The position numbers and the translations under genes were made by a program. DNA of 64,000 bases from a virus (taxonomy: Duplodnaviria > Heunggongvirae > Uroviricota > Caudoviricetes). The stretch lies in IMG/VR virus record IMGVR_UViG_2654587728_000014, positions 5,853 through 69,852 of that record. One strand, 5' to 3'. The notes beneath the pieces are model-generated. The model saw only the letters and a program-made list of their open reading frames with translations. It made no database searches and was not told the origin of the DNA. Shown piece by piece: positions 29,860 through 48,176 of the stretch; positions within the stretch are counted from its first letter, which is position 1, and each line of letters starts with the position of its first letter.

Positions 29860-29866
29860 CATCACA

Positions 29867-33140: not shown

Positions 33141-34024
33141 TGTTTGCCGTACTGGGTGATATTGAGTTTGAGCTGATTACCTACTGGGACGGCTTCGAGG
33201 CCACGTTCGGCGTCGATTATGCGGAGCATGCCCGCATCGGGGGTAAGCCTGGCCTGCAGTTCGTCGGCGACAGGCTGGACGAAATCCAGATAACTCTGGT
33301 TTTCCATCAGCATTATTGTGTACCCGATGTGGAGCTGGCGAGACTGCGAACAGCCATGAAAGCCCATCAGGCACTGGCGCTGGTCTTCGGCAACGGTGAC
33401 TATCGCGGCTGGTTCGTGATTACCGATGTGACTGCAACCAGCGAGCAGACTGACAGTACCGGCAACGTGCTGGCTGTCAGTGCCACCGTGTCTCTCCGGG
33501 AATACACCGGTGACCCGAAAAATCCTCTGCAACCACCGGCAATACGCACGAAGCTCCCGGGTGTCGGGGCGGTCTCCGGTGCCATACCTTCACCTTCAGG
33601 GGTGGCGCAGTTCATCCGCAACGGCGTCAACTATGCGAAACAGGCGCAGTCTGTACTCCAGACCACTATCAGCGCCGTTCGGGTGACACAGAAAATGAAG
33701 GATAACCCCGTTGTCGCACTGACCCGTGTGCCGGGGCTGATGAGCGGACTGGGTAATATCTCCGGGGCTCTGGGGAAAAGTGTTCCGGCGTTTAACGCAC
33801 TCTCTGAATCCATGCCCGATGCCATCAGTCTGGCCAGAACAGCCAGCGAAGCAGCCACGTATGTACAGCAGGCACAGTCTGCGCTGAGTGGTGTGGACAA
33901 AAGAAATATTGCAGGTGCTCTGGATACCGTTTCCGGGCAGCTTAACGCCGCCGGCACAGCATTCAACCGCATGTCTCCGGAATTAAGTGCAATGGCCGCC
34001 AGAATACTGACGAGGAGTGTGTGA
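33140..34024 (+). CDS. tail protein with P2 gpU-like N-terminal domain
   Basis: Starts MFAVLGDIEFELITY, parallel to the gpU-like start at 2841-3335. Confidence 0.55.
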   Translation: MFAVLGDIEFELITYWDGFEATFGVDYAEHARIGGKPGLQFVGDRLDEIQITLVFHQHYCVPDVELARLRTAMKAHQALALVFGNGDYRGWFVITDVTATSEQTDSTGNVLAVSATVSLREYTGDPKNPLQPPAIRTKLPGVGAVSGAIPSPSGVAQFIRNGVNYAKQAQSVLQTTISAVRVTQKMKDNPVVALTRVPGLMSGLGNISGALGKSVPAFNALSESMPDAISLARTASEAATYVQQAQSALSGVDKRNIAGALDTVSGQLNAAGTAFNRMSPELSAMAARILTRSV

Positions 34025-34236
34025 TGTTTCTTGAACATGTTACCCGTGACGGAGAGCGCTGGGATTCGCTGGCATGGCAGTACTACGGTGACCCGCTGGG
34101 CTATCCCCGGATTATTGCCGCCAATCCGCACGTGGCCATCACGCCGGTGCTGCCCTCCGGGCTGTTGTTACTGATCCCGGTGATTGAGGCTGAAGAAGCC
34201 CGTACAGAAGAGGATATTGCCCCATGGCTGAGATAA
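34021..34236 (+). CDS. tail protein X-like (LysM-like)
   Basis: 71 aa; GERWDSLAWQYYGDP pattern like P2 gpX. Confidence 0.5.
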   Translation: MMFLEHVTRDGERWDSLAWQYYGDPLGYPRIIAANPHVAITPVLPSGLLLLIPVIEAEEARTEEDIAPWLR

Positions 34237-35378
34237 ACAGCACTGCGCAAGTCACATCAGCGTTAACCGGCGTCAGCGATGTGCTGACACCGGTGTTCAC
34301 TTTGTGGTATCTGCAGAAAAACATCACCTCTGATATCGCGCCTTATGTCACCCGTGTGACCTGGAGCGATAACATCAAAAATGAGTCCGATACCATTGAG
34401 GTGGAGCTGGACGACACCGATGGCCGCTGGCTGGATAAATGGTATCCGGGCAAGGGTGACACGCTGACGCTGAAAATGGGCTATCAGGGCGAGAAGCTGC
34501 TGTCCTGCGGTACGTTCTCTATAGACGAGATCGAAGTGAGTTCGCCCGCTTCCGTTGTTTCTATCCGTGGGGTGGCCACCTCGGTTAACAGTGCCCTGCG
34601 GACTAAAACCAGTCGTGGTTTTGAGAACACCACGCTGGCAGCTGTTGCGGGGCGGATTGCCAGAAAGCACCGACTGAAACTGGTGGGCAGCATTGAGTCC
34701 ATCAGAATCGACCGGGTGACCCAGTATGCTGAAACCGACGTGGGTTTTCTGCGCCGGCTGGCCAGCGAGTATGGTTATGCAGTGAAAGTGGTCAGTGACC
34801 AGCTGATTTTTTCTCATCTGGCCACACTGCGCAGTCAGGAGCCGGTCAGGCAGTTAAAACCGCAGGATGTGGCCCGCTTTTCCCTGCGTGACACCATCAA
34901 CCGGGTCTATAAATCTGCAAAGGTAAAACACCAGAAAAGCAGCAGTAAAAAACTGATCGTCTACGAAGCTGATGGTGGTACCCGTGAAAGCGACAAAAAG
35001 CTCAAAGGTGGTAAGGTTACCAGCGCTGACTCACTTAAAGTTAACAGCCGCGTCAGCGACCCGGACAGTGCCCGGATTAAAGCGGATTCAGCACTGGCCA
35101 GACATAACGAATACCAGCAGAACGGCTCCCTGACGCTGACGGGAACACCTCAACTGACAGCAGGCAACAAAATTGAACTGGTGGGTTTTGGGCAGTTATC
35201 CGGGCCATGGCTCATAACCACTGCCCGCCATGCGTTTGACCGTAACAGCGGCTACACCACAGAGCTGGAAGTGGCACGGGGGCCAGTCACAAGAGGGAAA
35301 AAACAAAAAACTCAGAAACTCACGGTTTATCACCCGGATGGCAGTACATCGACGGTGATTAAGGAGAAGAAAAAATGA
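34224..35378 (+). CDS. tail protein, P2 gpD / Mu P-like
   Basis: 384 aa in the position after tape measure and X. Confidence 0.7.
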   Translation: MAEINSTAQVTSALTGVSDVLTPVFTLWYLQKNITSDIAPYVTRVTWSDNIKNESDTIEVELDDTDGRWLDKWYPGKGDTLTLKMGYQGEKLLSCGTFSIDEIEVSSPASVVSIRGVATSVNSALRTKTSRGFENTTLAAVAGRIARKHRLKLVGSIESIRIDRVTQYAETDVGFLRRLASEYGYAVKVVSDQLIFSHLATLRSQEPVRQLKPQDVARFSLRDTINRVYKSAKVKHQKSSSKKLIVYEADGGTRESDKKLKGGKVTSADSLKVNSRVSDPDSARIKADSALARHNEYQQNGSLTLTGTPQLTAGNKIELVGFGQLSGPWLITTARHAFDRNSGYTTELEVARGPVTRGKKQKTQKLTVYHPDGSTSTVIKEKKK

Positions 35379-35971
35379 CTGGTGTCACTCGTCAGGTCGG
35401 TACGGTCAGTGCCGTTGATGCCGACAGGGTTCAGGCCCGCGTTCGTCTGCCTGAATGCGATAACCTGCGCACAAACTGGCTTAACGTGCTGCAGCGCAAT
35501 ACCCAGGATAACAAAGATTACTGGCTCCCTGACGTGGGGGAGCAGGTTGAGGTGCTGCTCGATGCCAACGGCGAGGATGGTGTTATTCTGGGCGCGGTGT
35601 ATTCAGACGTCGATAAACCACCGTTCAGTGACAAAAATATCCGGGGAACCCGGTTTGCTGATGGTGCAGAGTACAGCTACAACCGGAAGACGCACACTCT
35701 GACCATCCGGGGCGGCATTGAGCATATTGTCATTGAGTGTGGTGCTGATGTGGTATTGAAAACACAGAAAGCCACGATTGACGCACCGGAAACCGAACTT
35801 ACCGGAGATCTGCGTGTCAGGGGTAAGCTGATTTACGAAGGAGGCATGGCGGGTTCTGGTGGTGAAGGTGTTACCGCGACCATCCATGGCAATATCGAGA
35901 TTAAAGGGAATGCCCATGCCACGGGCAGTATGTTGTCTGATGGCGAAAACTCCAGCCACCACTCCCACTGA
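35375..35971 (+). CDS. baseplate assembly protein V (spike)
   Basis: 198 aa; order V-W-J-I. Confidence 0.7.
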   Translation: MTGVTRQVGTVSAVDADRVQARVRLPECDNLRTNWLNVLQRNTQDNKDYWLPDVGEQVEVLLDANGEDGVILGAVYSDVDKPPFSDKNIRGTRFADGAEYSYNRKTHTLTIRGGIEHIVIECGADVVLKTQKATIDAPETELTGDLRVRGKLIYEGGMAGSGGEGVTATIHGNIEIKGNAHATGSMLSDGENSSHHSH

Positions 35972-36025
35972 GCTTTTTAAACGCCTTTAATATCAGCGTT
36001 CCCGCACGGGGGCAATACTGCCCCC

Positions 36026-36373
36026 ATGAAAACAACCTCAGTATTCTGGCAACCGACCCTGCAGGCTCCCGGCGAAATTGTCCGGGGGCTGGATGATATC
36101 CGGCAGGCGATTCAAATTATCCTGCGGACTCCCCGCGGCAGCGACCCGCATCGCCCGGAGTTCGGCAGCAATCTGCATCTTTATATCGACTGGCCTGTAG
36201 ACCGGGCCATTCCGCATGTGGTGCGCGAATCCGTCGATGCCATCCGGCGCTGGGAGCCCCGCTGCCAGCTTATGTCAGTTAAACCCGCCGTCGACGGCGA
36301 ACATCTTACGCTCCGGGTGAGCTGGAAAGGCTCAGACGGACAGACCCGGACTCAGGAGCTGCTATGGCGCTGA
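36026..36373 (+). CDS. baseplate protein W (gp25-like)
   Basis: 115 aa between V and J. Confidence 0.65.
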   Translation: MKTTSVFWQPTLQAPGEIVRGLDDIRQAIQIILRTPRGSDPHRPEFGSNLHLYIDWPVDRAIPHVVRESVDAIRRWEPRCQLMSVKPAVDGEHLTLRVSWKGSDGQTRTQELLWR

Positions 36374-37467
36374 CAGAACCCGATTTTATTGAACGCGATG
36401 CCGACAAAATCACGGCAGAAATGATTGCGAAGTATGAAGCGGATACCGGCAAAACGCTGTACCCGGCACAGGCAGAACGTCTGCTGATTGATCTGTGGGC
36501 CTATCGCGAAATGCTGGTCAGGGTTGCGGTACAGGAGGCAGCAAAGCAGAATCTGGTCGCCTTTGCCCGTGAGCCGATGATTGATTACCTCGGTGAACTG
36601 GTCGGTGTATACCGTCTTGCCGCGCAGCCTGCCACTACCACGCTCCAGTTCTCCGTAGATGAGGCACTGGCCATTGATGTGCTGATCCCGGCAGGCACCC
36701 GCGTCAGCGCTTCCGACAGCGTTATTTTTGCCACCGATACAGATGTGGTACTGAAGGCCGGATTGCTGCTGGTCAATGTCACGTCCACCTGTACCGAACC
36801 CGGTACCGCTGGTAACGGCTGGCAACCTGCGCAGGTCAGTCAGTTACTCGATGAGATTGATAACGTCGACCTGCTGGTGAGCAATCTGACGGCCAGTTCC
36901 GGCGGTTCAGAACAGGAAGACGATGACAGGCTCCGGGAGCGTATCAGGCTGGCCCCGGAGTCATTCACCAATGCCGGAAGCCGTGGCGCATACCGCTTTC
37001 ATGCCATGCAGGCCCATCCCAACATTGTCGATGTTGCTGTGCTTTCCCCGGTTCCCGGGACCGTAGATCTGTATCCGCTGCTCAGTACCGGTCTGCCGGA
37101 CGGCGGTGTTCTCACGCTGGTAGAGAGTTTCTGCTCTGATGAGAAAGTCAGGCCACTCACTGATACAGTGCGGGCTAAAACACCAGTGAAGGTGGATTAC
37201 ACCATTGAAGCCAAGATTACGATCTATCGTGATCAGGATGCCAGGTCTGTAAAAGATGCCGCTAACAGCGCCATACAGAACTGGGTGGCATCACGTGCCG
37301 CCACGCTGGGGCGCGATATTGTCCCCAGCCAGATTATCAGTGCATTGTCCGTTTCCGGGGTGTACCAGGTTGAACTGGTGACACCGGCACTGCGGGTGGT
37401 GGCAGAAAACGAATGGGCAAACTGTACGGCAATCACTCTTAACATGACTGGAGTGTCTGATGACTGA
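36364..37467 (+). CDS. baseplate protein J
   Basis: 367 aa. Confidence 0.75.
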   Translation: MALTEPDFIERDADKITAEMIAKYEADTGKTLYPAQAERLLIDLWAYREMLVRVAVQEAAKQNLVAFAREPMIDYLGELVGVYRLAAQPATTTLQFSVDEALAIDVLIPAGTRVSASDSVIFATDTDVVLKAGLLLVNVTSTCTEPGTAGNGWQPAQVSQLLDEIDNVDLLVSNLTASSGGSEQEDDDRLRERIRLAPESFTNAGSRGAYRFHAMQAHPNIVDVAVLSPVPGTVDLYPLLSTGLPDGGVLTLVESFCSDEKVRPLTDTVRAKTPVKVDYTIEAKITIYRDQDARSVKDAANSAIQNWVASRAATLGRDIVPSQIISALSVSGVYQVELVTPALRVVAENEWANCTAITLNMTGVSDD

Positions 37468-38038
37468 GCCATTACAACTCCCGCCACCGCTTGAGGGTGA
37501 TATCAGTCTCAGGACGCTGGGAAGACTGGCAGGACGGCTGGATAACATCGACCTGAGCGTACTGATGGTCTTTCTCGTCGATATCGTCGACAGTTCCGCG
37601 CTGCCATGGCTGGGCGAGCAGTTCTCACTGTCTGGCGATGGCTGGGAGCTGGCGGAATCGGACGATGTTCGCCGCATGCTTATAAAAGCAGCCATCGAAC
37701 TGCACCGGTATAAAGGGACGCCGTGGTCAATCCGGGAAGTTATCCGCCGTTTTGGCTTTGGTGAAGTGGATCTGATTGAAGGCACAGGTCGTCTCAGTTA
37801 CGACGGCAATCGCAGCTATAACGGACTGTTTGTTCATGGAGATGCAGCCGCCTGGGCAGTTTATCGCGTTATTCTGAAACAGCCCATTACTAACGATCAG
37901 GCCGCGATGCTGCGTCAGACGCTCGCTGCATTTGCACCGGCCCGCTGCCATCTGGCCAGCCTGGAGTATCAGTCTGTGGCCATTCGCTATAACAATACCG
38001 CCATCCATGATGGCAGTTATAACCACGGGAGCAGTTGA
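37460..38038 (+). CDS. tail protein I (baseplate, fibre attachment)
   Basis: 192 aa between J and the tail fibre. Confidence 0.65.
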   Translation: MTEPLQLPPPLEGDISLRTLGRLAGRLDNIDLSVLMVFLVDIVDSSALPWLGEQFSLSGDGWELAESDDVRRMLIKAAIELHRYKGTPWSIREVIRRFGFGEVDLIEGTGRLSYDGNRSYNGLFVHGDAAAWAVYRVILKQPITNDQAAMLRQTLAAFAPARCHLASLEYQSVAIRYNNTAIHDGSYNHGSS

Positions 38039-39489
38039 TTATGGGAAACCTGAATGAAACAGAAAAGTGGGAAGAAAATATCTATCAACTGGAGACATCA
38101 GATCCGGTTCTGGGTGGTGCAGACGGGATATCAAATCGAGCCCCCCGGCAACTGGCAAACAGGACGAAATGGCTGAAGAAAAAAACGGAGGAAGCCGCAC
38201 AGTCACTGGCTGAACACGTACGTTCCCGTAACCACCCGGACGCGACACTGACAGCTAAGGGGTTCACCCAACTGAGCAGTGCCACCAACAGCACCTCTGA
38301 AACGCTGGCCGCCACACCAAAGGCCGTCAAGGCTGCATATGACCTGGCTGCCGGCAAGGCCCCCGTCAGCCATACTCACCCGTGGAGTCAGATAACGGGA
38401 GTGCCTGCTGCCTCGCTGACGGCAAAAGGCACCGTACAACTGAGCAGCGCCACGGACAGTCAATCAGAAACTGAGGCTGCCACGCCGAAGGCGGTCAAGG
38501 CTGCATACGACCTTGCAGCCGGCAAGGCGCCCGTCAGCCACACTCACCCGTGGAGTCAGATAACGGGAGTGCCTGCTGCCTCGCTGACGGCAAAAGGCAC
38601 CGTACAACTGAGCAGCGCCACGGACAGTCAATCAGAAACTGAGGCTGCCACGCCGAAGGCGGTCAAGGCTGCATACGACCTTGCAGCCGGCAAGGCGCCC
38701 GTCAGCCACACTCACCCGTGGAGTCAGATAACGGGAGTGCCTGCTGCCTCGCTGACGGCAAAAGGCACCGTACAATTGAGCAGTGCCATCAACAGCACGT
38801 CTGAAATACTGGCCGCCACACCGAAAGCGGTCAAGGCTGCATACGATCTGGCAAACGGAAAACAACCGGCAGATGCCACGCTCACTGCTCTGGCAGGACT
38901 TGCCACTGCAGCAGATCGGTTGCCTTATTTTACCGGAGCAGACCGCGCAGAGCTGGCAACCCTTACAGCTATTGGTCGCGCTATTATCGCTAAGGGCAGT
39001 ATAAAAGATGTCCTCAATTACCTTGGTTTGGGGGAAGGCTCTGCATTGCCTGTTGGTGTACCGGTTCCATGGCCCACCGCCACACCGCCAGCAGGCTGGT
39101 TACAGTGCAACGGAGCTACGTTCACCAAAGAACAATATCCTGTTCTGGCCAGAGTCTACCCGACCCTCCGTCTTCCCGATTTGCGCGGTGAGTTTATCCG
39201 TGGATGGGACGGTGGTCGCAAGGTTGATACCGGGCGTGCGCTACTTTCATTTCAGGAAGGGACTATCGTATCCGGTTTTGATGATAATGATACCGGAGAT
39301 ATCAGTTCGCTCGGCTCTACACAATACGGATTTGGTGACGCTTTAACCTCTAATCAACTGGGGGTCTTAAATGGCAAAAAGTGGATATTTGATGCATCCT
39401 CTAAAGGTGCACAAAGATATGACTGGTGGGCTTATGTATCAGCTCGCCCCCGCAATATCGCATTTAACTATATCGTGAGGGCGGCGTGA
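38035..39489 (+). CDS. tail-fibre protein of the Mu-like prophage
   Basis: 484 aa; three 56-aa shaft repeats; C-terminal NYLGLGEGSALPVGVPVPWPTATPPAGWL...RPRNIAFNYIVRAA shared with the P2-like H gene; no tfa gene follows on this strand. Confidence 0.85.
   Translation: MIMGNLNETEKWEENIYQLETSDPVLGGADGISNRAPRQLANRTKWLKKKTEEAAQSLAEHVRSRNHPDATLTAKGFTQLSSATNSTSETLAATPKAVKAAYDLAAGKAPVSHTHPWSQITGVPAASLTAKGTVQLSSATDSQSETEAATPKAVKAAYDLAAGKAPVSHTHPWSQITGVPAASLTAKGTVQLSSATDSQSETEAATPKAVKAAYDLAAGKAPVSHTHPWSQITGVPAASLTAKGTVQLSSAINSTSEILAATPKAVKAAYDLANGKQPADATLTALAGLATAADRLPYFTGADRAELATLTAIGRAIIAKGSIKDVLNYLGLGEGSALPVGVPVPWPTATPPAGWLQCNGATFTKEQYPVLARVYPTLRLPDLRGEFIRGWDGGRKVDTGRALLSFQEGTIVSGFDDNDTGDISSLGSTQYGFGDALTSNQLGVLNGKKWIFDASSKGAQRYDWWAYVSARPRNIAFNYIVRAA
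38251..38880. repeat. tandem 168-bp coding repeats (~3.7 copies) in the tail-fibre gene
   Basis: Copies at about 38419-38586 and 38587-38754 look identical by eye; flanking copies diverged; each encodes TAKG..QLSSA..S.SET.AATPKAVKAAYDLA..K.PVSHTHPWSQITGVPAASL. Confidence 0.7.
39011..39036. other. gix/hix-like motif in the Mu-like fibre gene
   Basis: TCCTCAATTACCTTGGTTTGGGGGAA; its GGTTTGGGGGAA half is the reverse complement of the TTCCCCCAAACC half at 2134. Confidence 0.3.
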
Positions 39490-39495
39490 TACCGT

Positions 39496-40110
39496 TCAGC
39501 CGGCAAGCGCCAGTGGCGCTTCCGGCCAGCTGATTTCAGGTGCCTTGCTGATATCCAGTGCGTTCAGCTCGTCGATATAATCCAGCACGGCGTTCAGTTT
39601 TGCCGTTTCTTCTGGTTTCAGACTGCGACCAGCACGCAGTTTGAGGTTGATAAGATCGACGGACGCCATCGCCTGTTTCACCCGTTGCTGGCGTTGCTGT
39701 CTGGCAACCTCCAGTTCTGCGGCTCGCTGCCGTTCAGTATCGGTTACCCACGCCTCACCGTTCCAGGTATCCCATGGCGTGGCTGGCTGTTTTGTGGTGG
39801 TGTCCGCCGGGTAATCACCCGGTTGGGTAATCAGAACGGGGTTACCGTTCTCCGTGCTGTATACCGTCTCGCCGCGGTGATCAGGCACATGCTCCCACCC
39901 GTTCAGCGTGGCAGTCCGGCAAACCACGTAACCCGAAATTGCTTCCGGCGGTGCATCGGCGCACGAATGTGCCGGAGTACCCACCCCAAGGGCGAGATAC
40001 TCCACAGAGGATGAGGTGTATTCCCGGGTTTCCTCGTCATAGTGATATACAGTGATATCGCCCGCTACAGTGGCGATACCGTTTTCATCCAGAACTGCAG
40101 TGTTACTCAT
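39496..40110 (-). CDS. tail-fibre assembly protein (P2 G-like)
   Basis: 204 aa homologous to the Tfa at 196-789; start overlaps the H stop. Confidence 0.8.
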   Translation of the reverse strand: MSNTAVLDENGIATVAGDITVYHYDEETREYTSSSVEYLALGVGTPAHSCADAPPEAISGYVVCRTATLNGWEHVPDHRGETVYSTENGNPVLITQPGDYPADTTTKQPATPWDTWNGEAWVTDTERQRAAELEVARQQRQQRVKQAMASVDLINLKLRAGRSLKPEETAKLNAVLDYIDELNALDISKAPEISWPEAPLALAG

Positions 40111-41759
40111 TAAACTGCCCTCACAATGTAATTAAGTGCAATGCTACGGGGTCTGACAGTGATACCCTTCGCATACCCGCTTCTGATAGAGGTCAGAATA
40201 GTAGCCTGCATACCATTGTCTGACATTGCCACGACAGGATCGCTGAATGTTGTCCCGTCCGGCATTTTAAAGCTGCCCTCACGAAGGTCTGTAATGGAAT
40301 CTTCATTGTTGAATCCCATGCCGACTATCCCCGAGGTTCCCGTAGTGTCCTGGTTATAATAATCCAGCATTGCTGTTCTTAACAGCGTTGCCCCTTGTGC
40401 GGACAGCAACTTACGTCCTGTATCAACTTTGCGCCCGTCGTCCCATCCACGGATAAACTCACCGCGTAAATCGGGAAGACGGAGGGTCGGGTAGACTCTG
40501 GCCAGAACAGGATATTGTTCTTTTGTAAAGGCGCGCCCGTCGCACTTTAACCAGCCTGCTGGCGGTGTGGCGGTGGGCCACGGAACAGGCACACCAACGG
40601 GTAGCGCCGAGCCTTCTCCTAAACCAAGGTAATCAAGAACTCCCTGAGTGCTGGTTTTACCAAGAATGGCACGTCCAACACTTGTCAACGCGGTTAACGC
40701 GGCACGATCTGCCCCTGTAAAATATGGGAGTTTATCTGCTGATGTAGCAAGCTCCGCCAGCGCCGTCAGGGTGGCATCCTTCGGTTGCTTACCCGCAAGC
40801 GCGTTAGTCATGGTGGTCGCAAAATTCGGGTCATTGCCCAGCGCTGCAGCCAGTTCGTTCAGCGTGTTCAGTGCATCAGGTGACGAATCTACAAGTGCGG
40901 CAATCGCAGCCATAACGAAAGCCGTGCTTGCGATCTGGGCACTATTAGTCCCCTGTGGCGCTGTTGGTGTTGTTGGCGTTCCGGTCAGTGCCGGGCTGTT
41001 TAATGGTGCTTTCTTGTTCGTTTCATCCATTACCGCCTTAACAGCTTTTGGTGTCGCTGCCAGCGTTTCAGACGTGCTGTTCGTGGCGCTACTGAGCTGA
41101 ACAATCCCTTTTTGTGTAGTGGTGGCGTTCTGGGCGGTATATTTCCCGTTAGCCAGGTCATATGCAGCCTTAACCGCTTTCGGTGTTGCGGCCAGTGTTT
41201 CTGATTCACTGTTAATTGCACTGCTTAACTGAGTAAAACCTTTTACGGTCAGCGAGGCGTCCGGGTGACGTCGTGACTGTTCGTGCTCTGATATTTTATC
41301 ATCCACATATTTGCGGGTTGCCAGAACCACAGACGGGTCGATTTTCAGCGTGATGGCTTCGGTGTTCGTGACAACCAGAATCATGCGGATAGTCTGGGTG
41401 CGTCCACTGCCTTCCTGCAACTGCGGTTTGTACGTTTCCGGGCAGTTTGCCACCGCAATGAGTGCACCTTCATCATCATAAAGACCAATCTCACGGATCC
41501 AGAATCCTCCCTCGTTTTCAGGGATGATTTGCTCCGCAATAATCTGGCTCTGATTGTTAGGGTCAACACTCAGAAGATTCAGCGGTGCAATGCGTTTCTG
41601 GTTAATCAGTTTTGTTTGTGCAGGGTCTGGTGTTGGTAACACACCATTTGCATCACCAACGGCCATTTGCGTCAGATTCAGCTTACTGCCGAGCATCGTC
41701 GCGTTAGCCAGTCGTGCTGCGCCCTGATTAGTCAGAATGGCGTAGTATTTCACTGTCAT
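40110..41759 (-). CDS. tail-fibre protein (P2 H-like)
   Basis: 549 aa; N-terminus MTVKYYAILTNQGAARLA with WIREIGLYDDEGALIAVAN matches the P2 gpH N-domain as remembered; C-terminal region shared with the other fibres. Confidence 0.85.
   Translation of the reverse strand: MTVKYYAILTNQGAARLANATMLGSKLNLTQMAVGDANGVLPTPDPAQTKLINQKRIAPLNLLSVDPNNQSQIIAEQIIPENEGGFWIREIGLYDDEGALIAVANCPETYKPQLQEGSGRTQTIRMILVVTNTEAITLKIDPSVVLATRKYVDDKISEHEQSRRHPDASLTVKGFTQLSSAINSESETLAATPKAVKAAYDLANGKYTAQNATTTQKGIVQLSSATNSTSETLAATPKAVKAVMDETNKKAPLNSPALTGTPTTPTAPQGTNSAQIASTAFVMAAIAALVDSSPDALNTLNELAAALGNDPNFATTMTNALAGKQPKDATLTALAELATSADKLPYFTGADRAALTALTSVGRAILGKTSTQGVLDYLGLGEGSALPVGVPVPWPTATPPAGWLKCDGRAFTKEQYPVLARVYPTLRLPDLRGEFIRGWDDGRKVDTGRKLLSAQGATLLRTAMLDYYNQDTTGTSGIVGMGFNNEDSITDLREGSFKMPDGTTFSDPVVAMSDNGMQATILTSIRSGYAKGITVRPRSIALNYIVRAV
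40614..40639. other. gix/hix-like motif in the H gene
   Basis: TTCTCCTAAACCAAGGTAATCAAGAA; left half identical to site 1 at 1695; inverted relative to the motif at 39011. Confidence 0.3.
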
Positions 41760-42397
41760 GCGTTTACTCTCAGATTATCAATTAAATGAATGGCCGGGGC
41801 AGGGAAATAATCCCCTTCGACAATAATGGACTCCGGGGTGTAGGGATAAACCGTCAGGGCATCGCCGTGATAGCATCCCGTACCAACGAAAATCTTTCCG
41901 TTCACACTCAGGCTGATCGCCAGCCCCGTCAGATGGCGACTTACTGGTTTTGCATCCGCAATAAGGCGCTCAAGTTCCTGATACATTTCATCGGTGATGC
42001 CCTGATCAAGTACTCCGACAACAATGCGAAATGTTCCTGGCTCCTCGTTGAGTTGCCACCACTCCTTTACTTCAATCAGGTAGCCGAGAGGCTCCACGGC
42101 TCTTCGCAGTGCGCTGATGGTCCCTTTGTGTCGGTGTATCAGCCATGCATCACGAATTACCTGTCGCTTTGTCTCTTCCGGCCAGTTGCGATCCCAGCGG
42201 TCAACGGAAAACGCCCAGGCGAGATAAGGCAGCAGATGCACCGGGCAGGTGTCCGGCGACCACAGCGTGTTGAGGTCTACCGGAATGTCTGTAATGCGTG
42301 TTCCGACGGCTTCGGCACAACGCATGAAATTGCTGGCTGATGGTGGTAACAGTGAATTACTCATTGCGTCCACCTTCGCTGATGGTGAATGACTCAC
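41756..42397 (-). CDS. tail protein I (P2 gpI-like)
   Basis: Position between J and H. Confidence 0.7.
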   Translation of the reverse strand: MSHSPSAKVDAMSNSLLPPSASNFMRCAEAVGTRITDIPVDLNTLWSPDTCPVHLLPYLAWAFSVDRWDRNWPEETKRQVIRDAWLIHRHKGTISALRRAVEPLGYLIEVKEWWQLNEEPGTFRIVVGVLDQGITDEMYQELERLIADAKPVSRHLTGLAISLSVNGKIFVGTGCYHGDALTVYPYTPESIIVEGDYFPAPAIHLIDNLRVNA

Positions 42398-43253
42398 AGC
42401 GCGCCGCCTGTATGTCGCTGATGGTCATATTCTGTGTGGGTTCGATTATCTCCACGCGTTGCACACCGTGCACATGCAGTGCGGCAGCAATGGCGGACAA
42501 CGCCACGTCCTGACCGATAAGCCCCTGCTCAGCCAGCCACTTCCTGAACGACGATTCAGCCGCGGCCAGAATAGGTTCGGATTCCGGGCCGGGGTAAAAG
42601 TACAGTTTTGCATTCAGCCGCCATGTCACGATTCTGGCGCTCTGTACGGTCAGGCGGTCGGCCACCGGGCGGGTATCCTCTGCATTCAGAACGGCGCGAA
42701 CGGTATTAAGCAACGCCTCCGTTGCTGTGCCGTCGCCTTCAGTGGACAGGATGGAAACCGTCACATTTGCCGGAGACGGACTGATAGCCCGCGCATCACG
42801 CACCAGACCGCTGGCGCTGCGGGCAAAATACTCGTATGCACCTGACGGGCCAGCAACACTCAGGCCATCGTACGCCCGCTGTGCCCGCAGTCTCAGCGAG
42901 GTGTCACTTTCCATCACTGCGTCGGTGGTATCCGTTGCCGGAGTGATGGTCAGGCGCTTTGTGTTCATATTGCCCGCGAGGTTGTCCAGGTCTGTCCCGG
43001 CGCTGTGGCTTAACATGCAGGCGTGTGCCCCCTCATTGACCCGCTGGCGTAACAGCATTTCACGAAACGCTGTTGTCTGGGCGATAACGTTCAGGGGTTC
43101 CGATTCCAGCTCCAGCGCGGCGGAGACGGCTTCACGCTGTTCGGCGGGATAAGCCGCAATCATCATGGCCTTTGTGTCAGCCAGAATTGCCTCAAAGTCA
43201 GGCTCCGCGATGATGGCGGGTTCCGGTAACTGGGAAAGGTCAACGGCGGGCAT
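42357..43253 (-). CDS. baseplate assembly protein J
   Basis: 298 aa; size and position as P2 gpJ. Confidence 0.75.
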   Translation of the reverse strand: MPAVDLSQLPEPAIIAEPDFEAILADTKAMMIAAYPAEQREAVSAALELESEPLNVIAQTTAFREMLLRQRVNEGAHACMLSHSAGTDLDNLAGNMNTKRLTITPATDTTDAVMESDTSLRLRAQRAYDGLSVAGPSGAYEYFARSASGLVRDARAISPSPANVTVSILSTEGDGTATEALLNTVRAVLNAEDTRPVADRLTVQSARIVTWRLNAKLYFYPGPESEPILAAAESSFRKWLAEQGLIGQDVALSAIAAALHVHGVQRVEIIEPTQNMTISDIQAARCESFTISEGGRNE

Positions 43254-43256
43254 GAT

Positions 43257-43607
43257 TTACTCCTTCAGCGTGATGGTTAACTCAACATTCTGCATGGTCT
43301 GCATGACAGTGCCCGACAGCGTCACCCCGGCGCGGCCTCCCGCTTTCCAGACAACGTCGATGGCGTCCAGGGCAATGCGGGGTTCCCATCGTGTCAGCGC
43401 AATCACGGCAGCACTCATGCATTGCAGACGAGTTGTGTTATTCATGGGTTCGTCAATCAAATCAGGCACAAGGCTGCCATATTCCCGTCGCATAACCCGG
43501 CTTGCCAGCGGGGTGATCAGGATGTCCCTGACTGACTGTTTCAGGTGCTCCATATCGTTCAGGTTTCCCGTCCCGTCCGGATTCATTCCTGTGTAGCGGG
43601 TTGTCAC
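43257..43607 (-). CDS. baseplate protein W
   Basis: 116 aa gp25-like. Confidence 0.7.
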   Translation of the reverse strand: MTTRYTGMNPDGTGNLNDMEHLKQSVRDILITPLASRVMRREYGSLVPDLIDEPMNNTTRLQCMSAAVIALTRWEPRIALDAIDVVWKAGGRAGVTLSGTVMQTMQNVELTITLKE

Positions 43608-44185
43608 TGCGGGCCTCCTGTCGAATCGCTGCCACCTTTAACGCCACCGTGCTTATGCGTATGCACTGTGATGCCGTTTGAGGTGAAATCGCCGCCGCTG
43701 TGCGTGATATTGCCGCTCATCTTTCCCCCTTTTGTGACGTCAAGCGTCGCTGTTCTCAGAAGGTCTGTGCATTCCACGACGGGCGTATCCAGTGTCACGC
43801 TGACGGATGCCTGCAGGGTGGCTGTTTTCATGCCGCTGGCGCTCAGTGCGCCTGCGTCCGTGTCGTAGCGGAACACCGCGCCATCCGGCGCGCTGATCAC
43901 GATTTCTTTCAGGCTTTTGCCGGGGGCCGGACTGGCATCACTCCACAGGCTGCCAATTATCATGGCGGTTTCCGGGTTGCCGCCAATGCAGGCAATTACC
44001 ACCTGTTCGCCTGGTGATGGCGGCAGCCACACATTGAAGGCTCCCGCGCGCGTGGTGTTCCAGCGCAGCCAGCCTGTTTCCAGTTCGCCGCTGCGAACGC
44101 GCACGCACCAGGATTCCTCATCAACTTCAGAGATGATCCCGGTACGGATGATGTTGCTCAGCAGTCGCATGAGTTCTGCGCTCAC
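43604..44185 (-). CDS. baseplate spike protein V
   Basis: 193 aa. Confidence 0.7.
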   Translation of the reverse strand: MSAELMRLLSNIIRTGIISEVDEESWCVRVRSGELETGWLRWNTTRAGAFNVWLPPSPGEQVVIACIGGNPETAMIIGSLWSDASPAPGKSLKEIVISAPDGAVFRYDTDAGALSASGMKTATLQASVSVTLDTPVVECTDLLRTATLDVTKGGKMSGNITHSGGDFTSNGITVHTHKHGGVKGGSDSTGGPQ

Positions 44186-44826
44186 CGTACAGCCTCCGCA
44201 ATCCGGCCCAGCACCGTGTTATAAATCAGGCGCTCATCTGCCTGGCTGATACCCAGCAGCTCACGTACCGGGTAATCGGTGAAAATGCCCGGCGCAACCT
44301 GATCGCGCTCACCGAACTGATGAACGCGTGCAATACGTGCGGCCACGCCGCTGTAACCCACCGTCACACCGGAAGCATCTGCACGGGCTTTCAGGTAGCG
44401 GGCGGTGCGCAGTTTTACGAACATGGGGACGCGCTTTGTGCTGTCCTGGTTGATGCGCCGGGTGCGTATTTCCAGAAAACGGTCGATGTCATCCCGGTAA
44501 AACGTGCGGATATTGTTTTTATCCTCATCCCACCCGGTAATGGTTCGCCCGTATTTCCCCGTGTCGTGATGCCAGTTTTTCAGCGTGCGTGCTTCGTTAT
44601 TCCAGATAAAGCGAATGCGCTCCTGTATCCGGGTTACGCGGCGTCTGCGTGGTGTCCATGCGGTCCCGTCCGGCGCTTTCTGTGACCGGATGCGCGCCTG
44701 CTGGGCGCGGCGTAAATCCTGTGCCAGCTTTCTGGCGATGTTATTGATGGCCTGCTGATTCAGGCTGTCGCGGATGGCCTCAAAGGTTTCATCCACACGG
44801 GTGAATGCCTTATCCATCGCTTTCAC
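44182..44826 (-). CDS. tail completion / virion morphogenesis protein (P2 gpS-like)
   Basis: Position between R and V. Confidence 0.5.
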   Translation of the reverse strand: MKAMDKAFTRVDETFEAIRDSLNQQAINNIARKLAQDLRRAQQARIRSQKAPDGTAWTPRRRRVTRIQERIRFIWNNEARTLKNWHHDTGKYGRTITGWDEDKNNIRTFYRDDIDRFLEIRTRRINQDSTKRVPMFVKLRTARYLKARADASGVTVGYSGVAARIARVHQFGERDQVAPGIFTDYPVRELLGISQADERLIYNTVLGRIAEAVR

Positions 44827-45277
44827 CCCACGTCACATCCTGGAATATATGCGACCAGTCGCCTTCGGAAGATGGCAGACGGGGTTTTGGCTCCGGCAGG
44901 TGCTCTGCCTGCGGTGTCCCCTGACTGCTGCGCGTAATGCGAACGCGTTCCCGCAGGGGGAGCGTAAACAGGAGATCGGCGCTGTCATCGTCATTGATAA
45001 CGGCGGAGAATTTGATGTCCTGATTACGCTCCGGATTGAGCAACAACTGTGGCTGATTTTCGGATAACCACGCCAGTAGCGGCAGCGTGAGGTCGTCCAG
45101 CTCCCCGGCGTAATCCATGACAAACATCACCATCTGATAGCGGTAAACAAACGAGGGCGTTTCTCCGGTCGTTTCAATGTTGCCGCTCTCCACGAAAATG
45201 GTGAATTTTTCCGGGTTGGCCTGACACCATCGGCATGAACGGGTCATGGCTTCACGCAGGGAATCAGTTTTCAGCAT
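44810..45277 (-). CDS. tail completion protein (P2 gpR-like)
   Basis: 155 aa, same size as P2 gpR. Confidence 0.55.
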   Translation of the reverse strand: MLKTDSLREAMTRSCRWCQANPEKFTIFVESGNIETTGETPSFVYRYQMVMFVMDYAGELDDLTLPLLAWLSENQPQLLLNPERNQDIKFSAVINDDDSADLLFTLPLRERVRITRSSQGTPQAEHLPEPKPRLPSSEGDWSHIFQDVTWGESDG

Positions 45278-45584
45278 GGTTGTTGTCCTCGTTGTTCAGT
45301 CGTTGCAGTCTGCGCTGTTCCAGTAATTCAATGGCCCGTTTATCCGCGTTACAGGTTTCCAGTGCATCCAGAAGGCGGTCGCCCCATATACCGAGATTTC
45401 CCCATGTGGGAGTGTCAGGGAAGGGGGGAGGCGTTACCGGTATGGTCAGCGTCTGCGGTATAAGCCGGACTGACGGCGCTGGCCGTGGCGCGTTCTGCGT
45501 GCCTGCGCAACCTGTCAGTAAAACGAGCATCAGACAAAGCGTGGGCGCATTCATCTTTTGCAATATCGTTGCGTAGCTGTTCAC
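45264..45584 (-). CDS. o-spanin lipoprotein (P2 LysC-like)
   Basis: Lipobox LLTGCAG after a signal sequence; overlaps the 3' part of the i-spanin gene in another frame. Confidence 0.5.
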   Translation of the reverse strand: MNSYATILQKMNAPTLCLMLVLLTGCAGTQNAPRPAPSVRLIPQTLTIPVTPPPFPDTPTWGNLGIWGDRLLDALETCNADKRAIELLEQRRLQRLNNEDNNHAEN

Positions 45585-45822
45585 GTCTGGCTTCTCCGTC
45601 CTGATTGCGTTGCTGATTTTCCACGCGGAGTTGCGCCAGCACCTGCTGCATATCCTGTACCCCGGTGCTGATGATATTCAGGGTGTCGACGGTACTTTTC
45701 AGGGTGCTGGCCTGCGCTTCGTTTCTGGCGTTCTCCCGGCCCAGCGACCACGACAGACGTATGGATGTTCCCCATGCGGCAATCAGAAGGAAAGCGACAC
45801 CCAGCGTGGGCCAGAGCTTCAT
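45415..45822 (-). CDS. i-spanin (P2 LysB-like)
   Basis: Start MKLWPTLGVAFLLIAAWG (TM helix) overlapping the endolysin stop as ATGA; coiled-coil periplasmic domain. Confidence 0.5.
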   Translation of the reverse strand: MKLWPTLGVAFLLIAAWGTSIRLSWSLGRENARNEAQASTLKSTVDTLNIISTGVQDMQQVLAQLRVENQQRNQDGEARREQLRNDIAKDECAHALSDARFTDRLRRHAERATASAVSPAYTADADHTGNASPLP

Positions 45823-46211
45823 GCCGGATAGGCTCCGTGTGGTAACTGAAAATGCGGTCCGTCTTTCAGGGTCTTCCAGTCGCCGCCCCATTCCACCGGA
45901 ATATTCAGTTCCCGGCTGGCCTGTCTGAATGCTGCTGCGATTTTTTCGTACAGCGACCATTCCCATGACACCTGGCTGCCGATATAAGCCACAACATCCA
46001 CGGCATGCCCCGTAAGGTGGCGGCTGTTCATGGTCTGGCTCTTACCCGTGGCCACCAGTTGCTTCTGGCGGTAACGGCTGCGCAACCCTTCGGTGATACC
46101 AAAATCCACTTCCGAGATTTCCAGTGCCCGTCGGGTCACTTTCACCAGATCAGGATTTACGCCCTGCAAATTCTTTTCGCTCCGGCTGCTGAATTTAAAT
46201 GTGTTGCTCAT
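45819..46211 (-). CDS. endolysin, peptidase M15-like
   Basis: 130 aa; SRHLTGHAVDV and WGGDW...GPHFQL resemble the Zn-binding motifs of M15 peptidases. Confidence 0.55.
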   Translation of the reverse strand: MSNTFKFSSRSEKNLQGVNPDLVKVTRRALEISEVDFGITEGLRSRYRQKQLVATGKSQTMNSRHLTGHAVDVVAYIGSQVSWEWSLYEKIAAAFRQASRELNIPVEWGGDWKTLKDGPHFQLPHGAYPA

Positions 46212-46531
46212 TCGTCCTTCTCCTTCACCCTGCGATTAAAGGCCGCAATAACCTTGTCGCGTGCTTTCTCTGCCCCCATAAAACCGATTGATGCGCCGAT
46301 AAACGTCACGGCATCTTCAGGAAAACCGAAGAAGCGCAACGACCCGGCCACGGCCATGGCAAGAACGCCGCACGCCAGCGATCCCGTTACGGTCTGAACC
46401 AGTGTTCGTCCGTCATAAAGACTCATCAGCGCGGAAATGCTGACCGCCGCGCCTACTGCATACACCGTTGGCAGGTGGTCAAAGAGCCATGCAATAACCT
46501 GCTCTGTGATCCCTGTTTGAATGGTGCTCAC
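46208..46531 (-). CDS. putative holin
   Basis: About 108 aa with two or three TM helices directly upstream of the endolysin; start codon uncertain. Confidence 0.4.
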   Translation of the reverse strand: MSTIQTGITEQVIAWLFDHLPTVYAVGAAVSISALMSLYDGRTLVQTVTGSLACGVLAMAVAGSLRFFGFPEDAVTFIGASIGFMGAEKARDKVIAAFNRRVKEKDE

Positions 46532-46533
46532 TG

Positions 46534-46734
46534 CTACTCCCCCCACAACGGAATCATTTCTCGTTTCTTCTTCTCCGGCTCCGGCATCTCCACTTCCTGC
46601 CCGGCGTCCAGAAATACCTGCTGACAGAGTCCGGGGTTGGCATCCAGCACCTTTTCGGTGACGCCCTGCGTCGTGCCGTAGTACCGGAAACAGAGCGAAT
46701 CCACGGTGTCGCCTTCCAGTGCCTTTACTTTCAT
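46534..46734 (-). CDS. tail protein X (LysM-like)
   Basis: GDTVDSLCFRYYGTTQG pattern typical of P2 gpX. Confidence 0.5.
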   Translation of the reverse strand: MKVKALEGDTVDSLCFRYYGTTQGVTEKVLDANPGLCQQVFLDAGQEVEMPEPEKKKREMIPLWGE

Positions 46735-47237
46735 CAGCACAACTCCGCAAAGATTCGCGGACGGCACAGAATGTCAGAGATGGCCCAGCTCACATCACGC
46801 CACAAATCCGATGTCTGTATATCCAGTGCGTCCGCCCGGCGGTCGCCCTTGTCCGTTGTGTCCGCATCGCGGTAACGCTCCAGAATCAGGGCGCGTGTGG
46901 CGGTGTAAACCGCATTGCGCCAGTGCCAGAGATTGACACTTTCTCCGTTAATTACGGGTGCCGGAACATCGGCCAGCGTCTGATGGCCAGCCGCCTGCTG
47001 TTCCTGCTGCCATGCTTCCAGCTCGCGGGTAACATGTGCCACAGCCCCGGTGGCGGTATGCAGCAGACGGGAGGTGGTCACACGGCCCGGCAGTCGTACC
47101 GCCAGACGCAGCTCACGCAGCACAATATCCGGCCAGAATGCACCCGCTGAAATACGGGTATCACCATCATCGGTATCGGTGATGTCGTCCTCTGCGGGGC
47201 CGGGGTTGGTTCTGGCAACCATACTCATGGGGTTCAC
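46734..47237 (-). CDS. head completion protein (P2 gpL-like)
   Basis: 167 aa, position after M. Confidence 0.65.
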   Translation of the reverse strand: MNPMSMVARTNPGPAEDDITDTDDGDTRISAGAFWPDIVLRELRLAVRLPGRVTTSRLLHTATGAVAHVTRELEAWQQEQQAAGHQTLADVPAPVINGESVNLWHWRNAVYTATRALILERYRDADTTDKGDRRADALDIQTSDLWRDVSWAISDILCRPRIFAELC

Positions 47238-48131: not shown

Positions 48132-48176
48132 TTTTTCTCTCCGTTACAGGCGGGCATGATGCCCGCTGTGAGTTGA

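Follow-up and report, generated by a model that had tools for sequence, protein, structure and literature searches.

The 64,000-nt stretch of DNA analyzed here (the window) carries the tail-fibre modules of two prophages, and the locus is very probably the scrambled product of cross-talk between two DNA-inversion systems of the Gin/Cin type (Din family). The order of the locus rests on one draft WGS assembly contig. The prophages are nested, a BcepMu-like phage being situated inside the tape-measure gene T of a P88-like prophage of the P2 family. The earlier note on this DNA had recognized two unrelated prophages, which is borne out, but had treated them as independent neighbours, which they are not.

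The body of the BcepMu-like transposable prophage (4832..39024, plus strand; hereafter Mu-like) starts at the end TGATTAG... and runs through the constant part A of its fibre. The early genes, encoding Mor, GemA, Gam, a MuB-like ATPase, and a DDE transposase, lie on the minus strand, and the late genes lie on the plus strand. The prophage was assigned to the genus Bcepmuvirus by its 99.6% identity over 25 kb to Escherichia phage PhiKM of that genus and by Pfam matches to rve, AAA_22, Mor, GemA, and Mu_Gam. The hexamer CGTCAC is duplicated at both Mu-like ends, inside the P2-like gene T, and the same Mu-like end adjoins many different host genes in other genomes. The rest of the P88-like prophage (40628..64000; hereafter P2-like) is oriented on the minus strand, with the exception of P and Q on the plus strand, and shows 99.5% identity to L007; in the parent comparison, this intact sister prophage was 99.9-100% identical. 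Its minus-strand order is the N-terminus of H, I, J, W, V, S, R, the lysis genes, L, M, N, and O, accompanied by replication genes and then by an integrase from 62873 to the window end; the annotation of an O157 prophage was used for this region. The identity of 94-95% over about 80% of the length to P88 and PhiR44_2, which share this gene order, including an invertase and a tail operon on the opposite strand, places it among the P88-like phages (Peduoviridae, Xuanwuvirus); the Pfam matches include P2 GpR, S, V, W, J, I, GPO, and cap_P2.

The left end of the window is composed of P2-like elements, among which one Mu-like cassette is situated. The 3' end of the fibre C-terminal cassette Yp of the P2-like segment S1 (1..195, plus; 100% to L007) starts at a crossover site 261 bp upstream of the window, on the source contig (L015). 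It is followed by the tfa gene G of S1 (196..789, plus; Pfam Caudo_TAP_N/Caudo_TAP), with an identical protein in the intact P2-like prophages L007-L009, by a second tfa gene, G' (761..1204, minus; Caudo_TAP; 100% to L007), and by the alternative fibre C-terminal cassette cass' (1206..1694, minus; ORF 1206-1679), which is 100% identical to L007 up to the next site. The cassette Z of the Mu-like phage (1714..2133, minus; Pfam Collar; 99.3% to E. coli 4/0 and 99.5% to Z of LS4) now sits between this P2-like cassette and the P2-like invertase gene. The latter (2215..2814, plus; 199 aa) encodes a Gin-family serine DNA invertase with Resolvase and HTH_7 domains, and matched the Gin structures 4M6F/3UJ3 in the PDB over residues 1-185 (E 3e-91), with Ser9 present and YIRVSTNDQ conserved; its earlier identification as a Gin-type invertase is thereby upheld (E about 1e-90). 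A second invertase gene (invertase 2) is located just upstream of the window. Both genes are intact, both products carry PF00239 and PF02796, as in Din-family enzymes, and the two are 86% identical. Nucleotide identity with the first 240 nt of gin is 70-76%; Fis sites are too degenerate to call.

Downstream, the gene at 2841..3335 (minus), which the earlier note had taken for a tfa gene, matched Phage_P2_GpU and encodes the P2-like tail protein gpU. The next element is the C-terminal half of T (3342..4831, minus), cut by the Mu-like insertion; up to 4831 it matches T of other E. coli at 100%, and T is intact in L007. On the far side of the Mu-like phage, the P2-like tail genes from FI to the N-terminal part of T, together with D, are inverted, and the halves of T have opposite orientations. 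The right end of the Mu-like phage, together with invertase 2, is located ~5.8 kb to the left of its left end. From the window alone, invertase 2 and the N-terminal half of T were predicted just upstream, and the source contig (GCA_001267345.1, JHRJ01000008.1) showed both.

At the other end of the Mu-like body, within 38035-41759, the two fibre genes converge with a gap of 6 bp (39490-39495), the ORFs being as previously described. The Mu-like fibre, in its present form A|X (38035/38041..39489, plus; 482 aa from the ATG at 38041), contains 168-bp tandem repeats at 38248-38861. On the minus strand, a tfa gene (39496..40110; Caudo_TAP) is followed by the hybrid fibre gene B|Y (40110..41759; 549 aa), in which the N-terminus of the P2-like H (B) is fused in frame to the Mu-like cassette Y. 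These two genes had been read as a P2-like G-H pair. The description holds for the N-terminus of H, which is the P2-like part, from 40628 onward, but the last 171 codons of H and the entire tfa gene match the Mu-like prophage of E. coli LS4/ST131 at 99-100% identity, and the pair is a chimera in which a Mu-like tfa (99% DNA match to LS4) is now the 'G' gene of the hybrid P2-like fibre. The counterpart of this tfa in LS4 and 4/0 is annotated as a tail fiber assembly protein (WP_000072165.1). As had been stated, it is the only tfa between the two inverted motifs. The 1.6-kb unit proposed as shared by both prophages is the invertible segment S3 of the Mu-like phage itself (39025..40625, 1601 bp; 99% to LS4), composed of the X C-terminus, tfa, and the Y C-terminus; its outer site has become joined in frame to the N-terminus of the P2-like H.

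The LGLGEG-coding motifs that bound this segment (39011-39036, minus; 40614-40639, plus) represent one 26-bp site, TTCYCCYAAACC-AA-GGTAAT..., in inverted orientation, and YLGLGEGSALPVGVPVPWPTATPPAGW is encoded by both fibre genes. In total, four crossover sites were found in the window and one 261 bp upstream of it, in the orientations minus, plus, plus, minus, and plus. The core pattern TTCYCCYAAACCAASGT occurred four times in the window against 0.00 expected (100 shuffles). All five sites have the half-site TTCYCCYAAACC and the core AA in common, with the architecture TTCYCCYAAACC-AA-(G/C)GT..., which matches that of Mu gix, TTCCTGTAAACC-GA-GGTTTTGGATAA. As in other Din-family sites, two imperfectly symmetric 12-bp half-sites surround a 2-bp core in inverted orientation, and the core dinucleotide is identical at all five, in both prophages. 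The motifs are Gin/Cin-type crossover sites. After the motif, the two fibre genes show 87.5% identity over 200 nt, decaying beyond; the conserved block of ~200 bp had been noted correctly and its identity put slightly too high, at roughly 90%. Before the motif the identity is only about 60%, and a repeat search on the window returned the motif pair as an inverted repeat of 392 nt (77%).

Comparison of the sites with their parental counterparts revealed that four of the five are hybrids. On its cassette side, each hybrid junction matches one parental site at 99.5-100% over 200 nt, and on its outer side it matches a different one, again at 99.5-100%; alternative parents score 25-72%. The only native site is s3 of the Mu-like phage (A|X; 39011..39036, minus; core 39023-39024), 100%/100% identical to s3 of LS4. 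The site at 40614..40639 (plus), TTCTCCTAAACC AA GGTAATCAAGAA, combines Mu-like s4 (Y) on the cassette side (100% to L001) with P2-like s1 (H) on the outer side (100% to L007). Here, the native Mu-like homology to LS4 ends at 40630 and the native P2-like homology to FAM21845 begins at 40612; the parental homologies overlap at 40612-40630 only, and this site is, at the sequence level, demonstrably the recombination product of a Mu-like and a P2-like site. The site at 1695..1720 (plus), TTCTCCTAAACC AA CGTTTCTATGCC, joins P2-like s2 on the cassette side to Mu-like s4, at the 3' end of Z, on the outer side (100% to L007 / 99.5% to L001), and that at 2134..2159 (plus), TTCCCCCAAACC AA CGTTTTCGTTTT, joins Mu-like s5 (Z) on the cassette side to P2-like s2, upstream of the invertase gene, on the outer side. 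The site upstream of the window (minus) joins the P2-like Yp cassette to the promoter side of the Mu-like invertase.

These junctions bear on how the arrangement came about. The simplest picture would be that two prophages integrated independently side by side and that their fibres converge by chance, the motif creating a new common invertible unit. The 6-bp gap between the convergent fibres and the separate baseplate genes upstream of each agree with it; however, the Mu-like phage sits within T with a target duplication, the genes from FI to the N-terminal part of T and D are inverted beyond it, the Y cassette and tfa beside the P2-like H are Mu-like, and further hybrid sites are present at 1695-1720 and 2134-2159. 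The source contig and the junction comparison together refute this picture, which we consider highly improbable. Equally little credence is given to RecA-type homologous recombination in the conserved block of roughly 200 bp as the origin, without an invertase, of 40614-40639 and the other junctions. In its favour, the cassettes are 87-96% identical over about 200 nt past the site, and E. coli O157 is well known for large inversions between homologous regions of its prophages (cited in PMC6379469). Nevertheless, the conserved block lies on the cassette side only, where the sequence is 100% Mu-like Y and Yp of the P2 parent reaches just 72.5%; on the outer side, B and the 3' end of Z, the flanks of the two parents, show no relationship (about 27%); the cassette side of the cass' junction has no homology to the Mu-like cassettes (25-29%); and at four of four hybrid junctions the parents switch within 7 bp. 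A switch inside the AAACCAA core points to the action of an invertase, and homologous recombination, which the earlier note had admitted as a route, is excluded for the junction.

It is also unlikely, if less so, that the contig order reflects an assembly path through mixed inversion isomers or a mis-join at repeats, in which case the junctions may be real and their combination not be present on one chromosome. The assembly is a draft, segments of this kind are known to flip in clonal cultures (PMC4272514), and in a second run the Logan contig ends about 75 bp past a crossover site. On the other hand, the sites have only 14-19 bases in common and the near-repeats reach 87-96% identity, short of full identity, so each hybrid junction needs spanning reads. 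Furthermore, the five junctions form one consistent signed permutation that can be reached via legal inversions, and the Logan assembly of SRR21136863, an independent read set, reproduced the T::Mu junction and the hybrid site 2134-2159 with 0 mismatches in 12.7 kb. Cross-talk between the two inversion systems is the reading retained below. A breadth-first search required at least two inversions between the prophages, one of ~40 kb, or three inversions counting from the reference isomers, and enumeration yielded 64 legal isomers from five sites, with four C-terminal cassettes in the window plus Yp.

In this reading, the sequences show a history that begins with a P88-like prophage in which the ancestral module order was H, s1, S1 (Yp, G, G', cass'), s2, and the invertase. 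The BcepMu-like phage then entered T, 2.7 kb from the P2-like invertase gene, with duplication of CGTCAC, bringing the module order fibre A, s3, S3 (X, tfa, Y), s4, cassette Z, s5, and invertase 2. As the junction sequences show, one or both of the invertases recombined sites across the prophage boundary, and the convergent fibre arrangement is the outcome of at least 2-3 earlier inversions among the five sites, one of them ~40 kb. These events grafted the Mu-like receptor-binding tip (Y) and its chaperone tfa onto the P2-like fibre and left the Mu-like fibre reading A|X. The remaining system could constitute a shufflon-like network of 64 states in which both invertase genes are intact. A single additional inversion would make the Mu-like phage contiguous again, now with the P2-like module S1, and this would amount to a mechanism swapping receptor-binding modules between unrelated phages.

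The unit between 39023/24 and 40626/27 may still flip, exchanging X and Y between the fibres of both prophages. Inversion of 39025-40625 in silico gave two in-frame fibres, A|Y (501 aa, then tfa) and B|X (532 aa), in agreement with the earlier expectation that the C-termini would be swapped and tfa handed to the Mu-like fibre. Among complete E. coli genomes, those of ST131 included, S3 is present in both orientations, as expected of an invertible unit, in the native Mu-like context of other strains only. The A|Y junction as flipped in silico has 100% matches in EC958 and JJ1887, among others; the A|X junction matches two genomes, Z0117EC0098 and IPCEC31, at 100.0% and ST131-type strains, e.g., AR_0055 and AR_0058, at 99.9%. 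Similarly, the P2-like segment S1 occurs in both orientations (L007 vs L012/L013). Flipping of the 1.6-kb unit in the present hybrid context is plausible. Its rate would probably be reduced, since the closest recombinational enhancer should be situated within the 5' part of an invertase gene, the usual home of Gin-family enhancers, ~37 kb away.

When compared to known systems, the locus resembles the Mu G segment with Gin (also the P1 C segment with Cin and the e14 P segment with Pin) in its serine invertase, ~75% identical to Gin, in the 26-bp 12-2-12 sites inside the fibre gene at the border of constant and variable parts, in the swapping of fibre C-termini together with the tfa chaperone, and in the invertase gene adjoining the segment. 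It differs in the core, AA here and GA in gix of Mu and P88, in having five sites and two invertases instead of two sites and one invertase, in drawing its sites from two different prophages, with segments that reach ~37-40 kb and include nearly a whole prophage, and in that only one of three Mu-like cassettes carries a tfa. The mosaic tail-fibre genes of P2, Mu, P1, and others were reportedly ascribed by Haggard-Ljungquist in 1992 and Sandmeier in 1994 to horizontal exchange, inferred from sequence mosaicism. There, as here, unrelated N-termini are joined to shared C-terminal cassettes at the same conserved motif, and P2-like and Mu-like phages carry identical modules (L007 vs L011); the present locus, in contrast, is the intermediate itself, with parents at 99.5-100% and breakpoints within a 7-bp core.

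The Min multiple-inversion system of plasmid p15B has more than two crossover sites, overlapping segments, several C-termini for one fibre N-terminus, and a Din-family invertase. A three-site 'shufflon' has been described in a P2-like prophage of EPEC E2348/69 (PMC4272514). The present locus shares with both the sites in excess of two (at least three), the overlapping invertible segments, the several alternative C-termini, and the Din-family invertase. Whereas each of those systems is one element with one fibre gene, here the sites belong to two prophages. A common set of cassettes is contested by a pair of constant N-termini of unrelated phage origin, A (Mu-like) and B (P2-like H), and in both prophages the synteny is disrupted by inversions. 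Action in trans also has a precedent, as the Fels-2 invertase Fin inverts the Salmonella H segment (Kutsukake 2006, as cited in PMC4272514); sites and enzymes are interchangeable within the family, and for this reason a Din invertase of one element acts on the sites of another. In that case, however, the site pairs stay within their own element, while here sites of different elements recombine into hybrid sites and hybrid genes. The large chromosomal inversions between homologous prophages of E. coli O157:H7 (Iguchi 2006, cited in PMC6379469) are alike in that prophages form the endpoints of inversions of tens of kb or more; those occur by homologous recombination in long, near-identical regions, in contrast to site-specific exchange at a 26-bp site between unrelated prophages. 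The components are already known, and the cross-talk between prophages appears to be undescribed.

It is possible, and offered here tentatively, that compatible Din-type systems carried by unrelated prophages fuse into a single inter-phage shufflon if they are close together on the same chromosome, which may be a general invertase-catalyzed route for the reciprocal exchange of receptor-binding modules (cassettes and chaperones) between phage families. If so, viable recombinants, such as a Mu-like phage with a P2 module, could leave the cell, and the process would reversibly lock and unlock both prophages and invert host genes lying between them. A natural recombinant of this type is L011, a Mu-like phage whose late region is 99.6% identical and in which the P2-type module S1 occupies precisely the interval from one site core to the other. 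A chromosomal inversion of roughly 45 kb in E. coli 4/0 begins and ends within fibre regions of the same two types of prophage, the cassettes being too alike to separate a site-specific from a homologous origin. This inversion carries dmsABC through aroA, and strain 4/1-1 keeps the uninverted order. In ST131, the two prophage types are situated ~17 kb apart.

The fibre region of the window holds three open reading frames, namely the Mu-like fibre gene (38035-39489, plus strand, with a likely ATG at 38041), a tfa gene (39496-40110, minus strand), and a hybrid fibre gene (40110-41759, minus strand). The convergent fibre and tfa reading frames, with stop codons 6 bp apart, lie where an earlier note on this sequence had placed them. 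The motif that it described as common to both fibres was found as well, each gene encoding ...YLGLGEGSALPVGVPVPWPTATPPAGW... from DNA in inverted orientation at 39011-39036 and 40614-40639. The claimed identity of about 90% past the motif stands as conservation over 200 nt, with the figure corrected to 87.5%; before the motif, identity between the two fibre genes is only about 60%. Four copies of the core pattern TTCYCCYAAACCAASGT lie in the window (1695, 2134, 39020, and 40614), and the motif pair is real and not a chance match, since none of 100 dinucleotide-preserving shuffles yielded the pattern. The motif corresponds to a 26-bp site composed of two 12-bp half-sites flanking a 2-bp core, for example TTCTCCTAAACC-AA-GGTAATCAAGAA. 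The gix site taken from the Mu genome, TTCCTGTAAACC-GA-GGTTTTGGATAA, has the same architecture but carries GA as its core dinucleotide, in contrast to AA in the window. The gene at 2215-2814 encodes, as previously proposed, an invertase: a 199-aa serine recombinase with the Pfam domains Resolvase and HTH_7, which matches the solved Mu Gin structures over its whole length (E = 3e-91) and contains the catalytic serine. This P2-like gene and that of the 190-aa Mu-like invertase (invertase 2) both look intact. Additionally, units of 168 bp (56 aa) are tandemly repeated in the Mu-like fibre gene at 38248-38861, in about 3.7 copies with 82-100% identity; the repeat number differs among strains, as the window has one copy more than E. 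coli LS4.

The window combines two prophages. Positions 4832-39024 are 99.6% identical to Escherichia phage PhiKM of the genus Bcepmuvirus and include genes encoding a DDE transposase, a MuB-like ATPase, Gam, GemA, and Mor; across further E. coli genomes the same Mu-like end adjoins many different host genes, as expected of a transposable phage. Positions 40628-64000 form a prophage of the P2 family whose identity to phages P88 and PhiR44_2 is 94-95%. P88 shares its gene order, in which a DNA invertase follows the fibre cassettes and the FI-U tail operon occupies the opposite strand, and reading that operon as an extra inversion was accordingly rejected. As in P88 and an O157 prophage, ParM-type segregation/partition genes lie by the replication endonuclease (55092-56051 and neighbours). 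A reading of positions 1-4800 as a third prophage, e14-like and equipped with a separate fibre and tfa, was discarded because the 471-aa reading frame is the C-terminal half of the P2-like tape-measure protein and the 164-aa one is gpU.

The earlier note had set the two prophages side by side, while our analysis revealed that they are nested. The C-terminal half of the tape-measure gene T (3342-4831) matches its counterparts in other E. coli with 100% identity as far as 4831, after which the Mu-like end TGATTAG... starts. In a sister assembly (L007, GCA_001266335.1), the same P2-like prophage is uninterrupted at 99.9-100% identity, and comparison with it places the T target CGTCAC, duplicated, at both Mu ends. 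The content foreseen upstream from the window alone, that is, the rest of T and the Mu-like right end with its invertase, was exactly present on the source contig JHRJ01000008.1 (GCA_001267345.1), where position 1 of the window is position 6284. Read towards the window, the contig carries D, FI, FII, E, and E', then 456 codons from the N-terminal part of T, the right end of the Mu-like prophage with its 190-aa invertase, and last a crossover site followed by the P2-like cassette Yp, which continues into the window. The two halves of T run in opposite directions, which by itself proves an inversion with one endpoint between them.

Intact relatives provided the native arrangements. Between aroA and ycaL, E. 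coli LS4 and many ST131 genomes carry the Mu-like prophage, whose right end there comprises the constant fibre part A, site s3, cassette X, tfa (reverse), cassette Y (reverse), s4, cassette Z (reverse), s5, the 190-aa invertase, and aroA. The P2-like order in three intact loci (L003, L004, and L007) is H with its N-terminal constant part B, site s1, Yp, G, G' (reverse), the cassette cass' (reverse), s2, the 199-aa invertase, and U and T in reverse. Orienting each site from its cassette side to its outer side and comparing 200 nt per side with these five parental sites, we found that only A|X (39011-39036) is native, both sides being 100% identical to s3. The B|Y site (40614-40639) has a cassette side 100% identical to Mu-like s4 and an outer side 100% identical to P2-like s1. 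At 1695-1720, where cass' meets the 3' end of Z, the cassette side is 100% P2-like s2 and the outer side 99.5% Mu-like s4. At 2134-2159, Z (99.5% Mu-like s5) is joined to the flank beside the P2-like invertase (100% s2), and 261 bp upstream of the window, Yp (100% P2-like s1) is joined to the flank beside the Mu-like invertase (100% s5). In the informative flanks the alternative parents score 25-72%, and the exchange point is limited to the common 7-bp core AAACCAA.

Homologous recombination, which the earlier note had allowed as an alternative route, is excluded as the origin of these junctions because identity between Y and Yp is only 72.5%, B bears no relation to the other outer flank, the 3' end of Z, and cass' is not homologous to any of the Mu-like cassettes. 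Judged by sequence, the hybrid junctions carry the signature of a serine invertase, and a cross-prophage invertase mechanism can, with high confidence, be taken as established from them. The contig order may instead reflect a mixed population or a mis-join, the source being a draft assembly; nevertheless, the crossover sites have fewer than 20 identical bases in common and the near-repeats are non-identical, the five junctions form one consistent permutation, and the Logan assembly of another run (SRR21136863) agrees without a mismatch over 12.7 kb that span both the T::Mu junction and the 2134-2159 hybrid site. The break of a Logan contig near a site is uninformative on heterogeneity, since near-repeats would break the contig anyway. 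Neither the T::Mu nor the B|Y junction occurred in 5,426 complete E. coli genomes, and an exact look-up of the hybrid proteins B|Y and Z-ORF returned the source assembly only.

The cross-prophage inversions were modelled with six segments and five oriented sites, and an inversion was allowed only if constant sides stayed joined to cassette sides. Of the resulting 64 isomers, the one observed is separated from the reference order by three inversions; isomers shuffled only within each prophage are all at least two inversions away from it. On one shortest path, the P2-like segment S1 (Yp, G, G', and cass') would flip, about 40 kb would then invert between the H site and Mu-like s4, and finally about 2.4 kb would invert between the two invertase-proximal sites. 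A single inversion between s1 and s4 rightly predicted the upstream invertase but not the position of cassette Z, and the three-inversion model was adopted.

The proposal that 39025-40625 is an invertible unit common to both fibres is structurally sound as a tip swap, but the unit itself is the Mu-like phage's own segment S3 (X, tfa, and Y), 99% identical to the LS4 segment. An in-silico flip bore out the predicted swap of C-termini and transfer of tfa to the Mu-like fibre: it gives A|Y (501 aa), with tfa directly downstream and its start overlapping the A|Y stop codon, and B|X (532 aa), both in frame. EC958, JJ1887, and many further genomes match this A|Y junction over its full length with 100% identity, and others match A|X with 99.9-100%; as both occur, S3 flips in nature in its native context. 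In the window, the same flip would swap tips between the fibres of two prophages because the outer site has been exchanged, and continuing inversion in this genome is a plausible prediction. Gin, Hin, and Cin depend on an enhancer in cis that is bound by Fis and usually lies inside the invertase gene, and the closest such gene lies about 37 kb from this unit, so flipping would be expected to be slower here than in the native arrangement, and inversions at the three invertase-proximal sites are predicted to be likelier. Among the Mu-like cassettes X, Y, and Z (39025-40625 and 1714-2133), only Y is followed by the tfa chaperone gene, and when the fibre is in its A|X form, tfa runs convergently and antisense to the operon of the fibre; X and Z are either chaperone-independent or borrow a chaperone.

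In its present state neither prophage is a normal phage, since T is broken in the P2-like prophage, with its tail genes displaced and inverted, and the right end of the Mu-like prophage is detached and no longer contiguous. One more inversion would restore a contiguous Mu-like phage (A, S1, invertase 2, and right end) and would leave S3 and Z with the P2-like H. A natural Mu-like prophage (L011, GCA_001285645.1) with a late region 99.6% identical to the window carries module S1 precisely between the site cores, 98.7% identical and with an identical 197-aa tfa, and is exactly the kind of phage expected after that step. At the same locus, host genes flank an array in L010 (8691-12152, GCA_048120985.1) in which a sugar-binding periplasmic protein gene (SBP_bac_1) continues in frame into a fibre 'Collar' cassette; G, G', cass', and the 190-aa Mu-like invertase come next. 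The array looks like a remnant after loss of the Mu-like prophage body present in L011. On the metagenome scaffold ERZ28648199 (L016, 6762-13797), P1-like tail genes (Phage_P1_Gp16 and P1_tail_fiber_R) precede a fibre fragment, after which come module S1, 99.9% identical to that of the window, and the P2-like invertase with gpU and T; the scaffold represents either a third phage family with the module via the same sites or a chimeric scaffold.

An independent, related rearrangement is present in E. coli 4/0, where the Mu-like prophage adjoins ycaL as usual but its fibre end abuts a P2-like prophage. The roughly 45-kb inversion (NZ_CP023849.1, about 955,000-1,002,000; loci L002, L005, L017, and L018) ends in the fibre-switch regions of the P2-like (serS/dmsA) and Mu-like (aroA/ycaL) prophages and takes in 13 or more host genes, including dmsABC, ycaC, ycaD, pflAB, focA, ycaO, ycaP, serC, and aroA, so that the Mu-like invertase and aroA are now beside the P2-like invertase and tail genes near serS. 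A site-specific origin is unprovable here because the cassettes of the two prophages are too alike. In strain 4/1-1 the order is uninverted, with the prophages about 17 kb apart. The two strains were rejected as an isogenic pair dating the inversion, their P2-like prophages encoding different protein versions, and serve only as one inverted and one uninverted example.

Tail-fibre mosaicism in P2, Mu, P1, and relatives has been known for three decades, and fibre-segment exchange among these three phages was inferred in the 1990s; the conserved joint motif was suspected as the exchange point on comparative evidence, and Gin-family invertible fibre segments in Mu-like and P2-like prophages are textbook knowledge. 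In EPEC, Goldberg et al. showed such segments to flip, among them those of a three-site shufflon carried by a P2-like prophage (PMC4272514, which cites Kutsukake 2006 for trans-action between family members), and DNA invertases are a recognised feature of a P2 hotspot (bioRxiv 10.1101/2024.10.15.618418). The nearest precedent found for cross-prophage recombination is an ST131 preprint, which gives no mechanism for the inversions and the 'translocation' that it notes between fibres of P88-, BP-4795-, and phiE255-like prophages. The literature searched contains no account of crossover sites of two different prophages recombining, with hybrid sites and inversions of tens of kb. The present locus is an exchange caught part-way, with both parents identifiable at 99.5-100% identity and breakpoints inside the 7-bp core, in a genome one inversion away from a reciprocal module swap whose expected recombinant phage was found in another genome. 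Prophage invertases are thus able to cause structural variation of 40-45 kb that can disable two prophages at once and, as in E. coli 4/0, may take in host genes. Host-range prediction for phages induced from polylysogens should allow for inter-prophage cassette exchange.

Annotation pipelines label these fibres pseudogenes, and assemblies break or pick one isomer at the sites. For example, in LS4, 4/0, and 4/1-1 (L001, the LS4 locus, 10240-12461; L002, a 4/0 locus, 10240-11812) RefSeq (PGAP) lists both the silent cassettes and the fibre gene of the Mu-like prophage as pseudogenes, tagged 'incomplete'; invertible fibre genes that work are systematically mis-annotated. Finally, the sites of phage P88 (L022, 23847 and 26901) are of the Mu gix type with a GA core (TTCCTGTAAACC-GA-...), unlike the AA-core sites of the P88-like prophage in the window. 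Related P2-family phages therefore fall into different site-compatibility classes, which should restrict the prophage pairs that cross-recombine.
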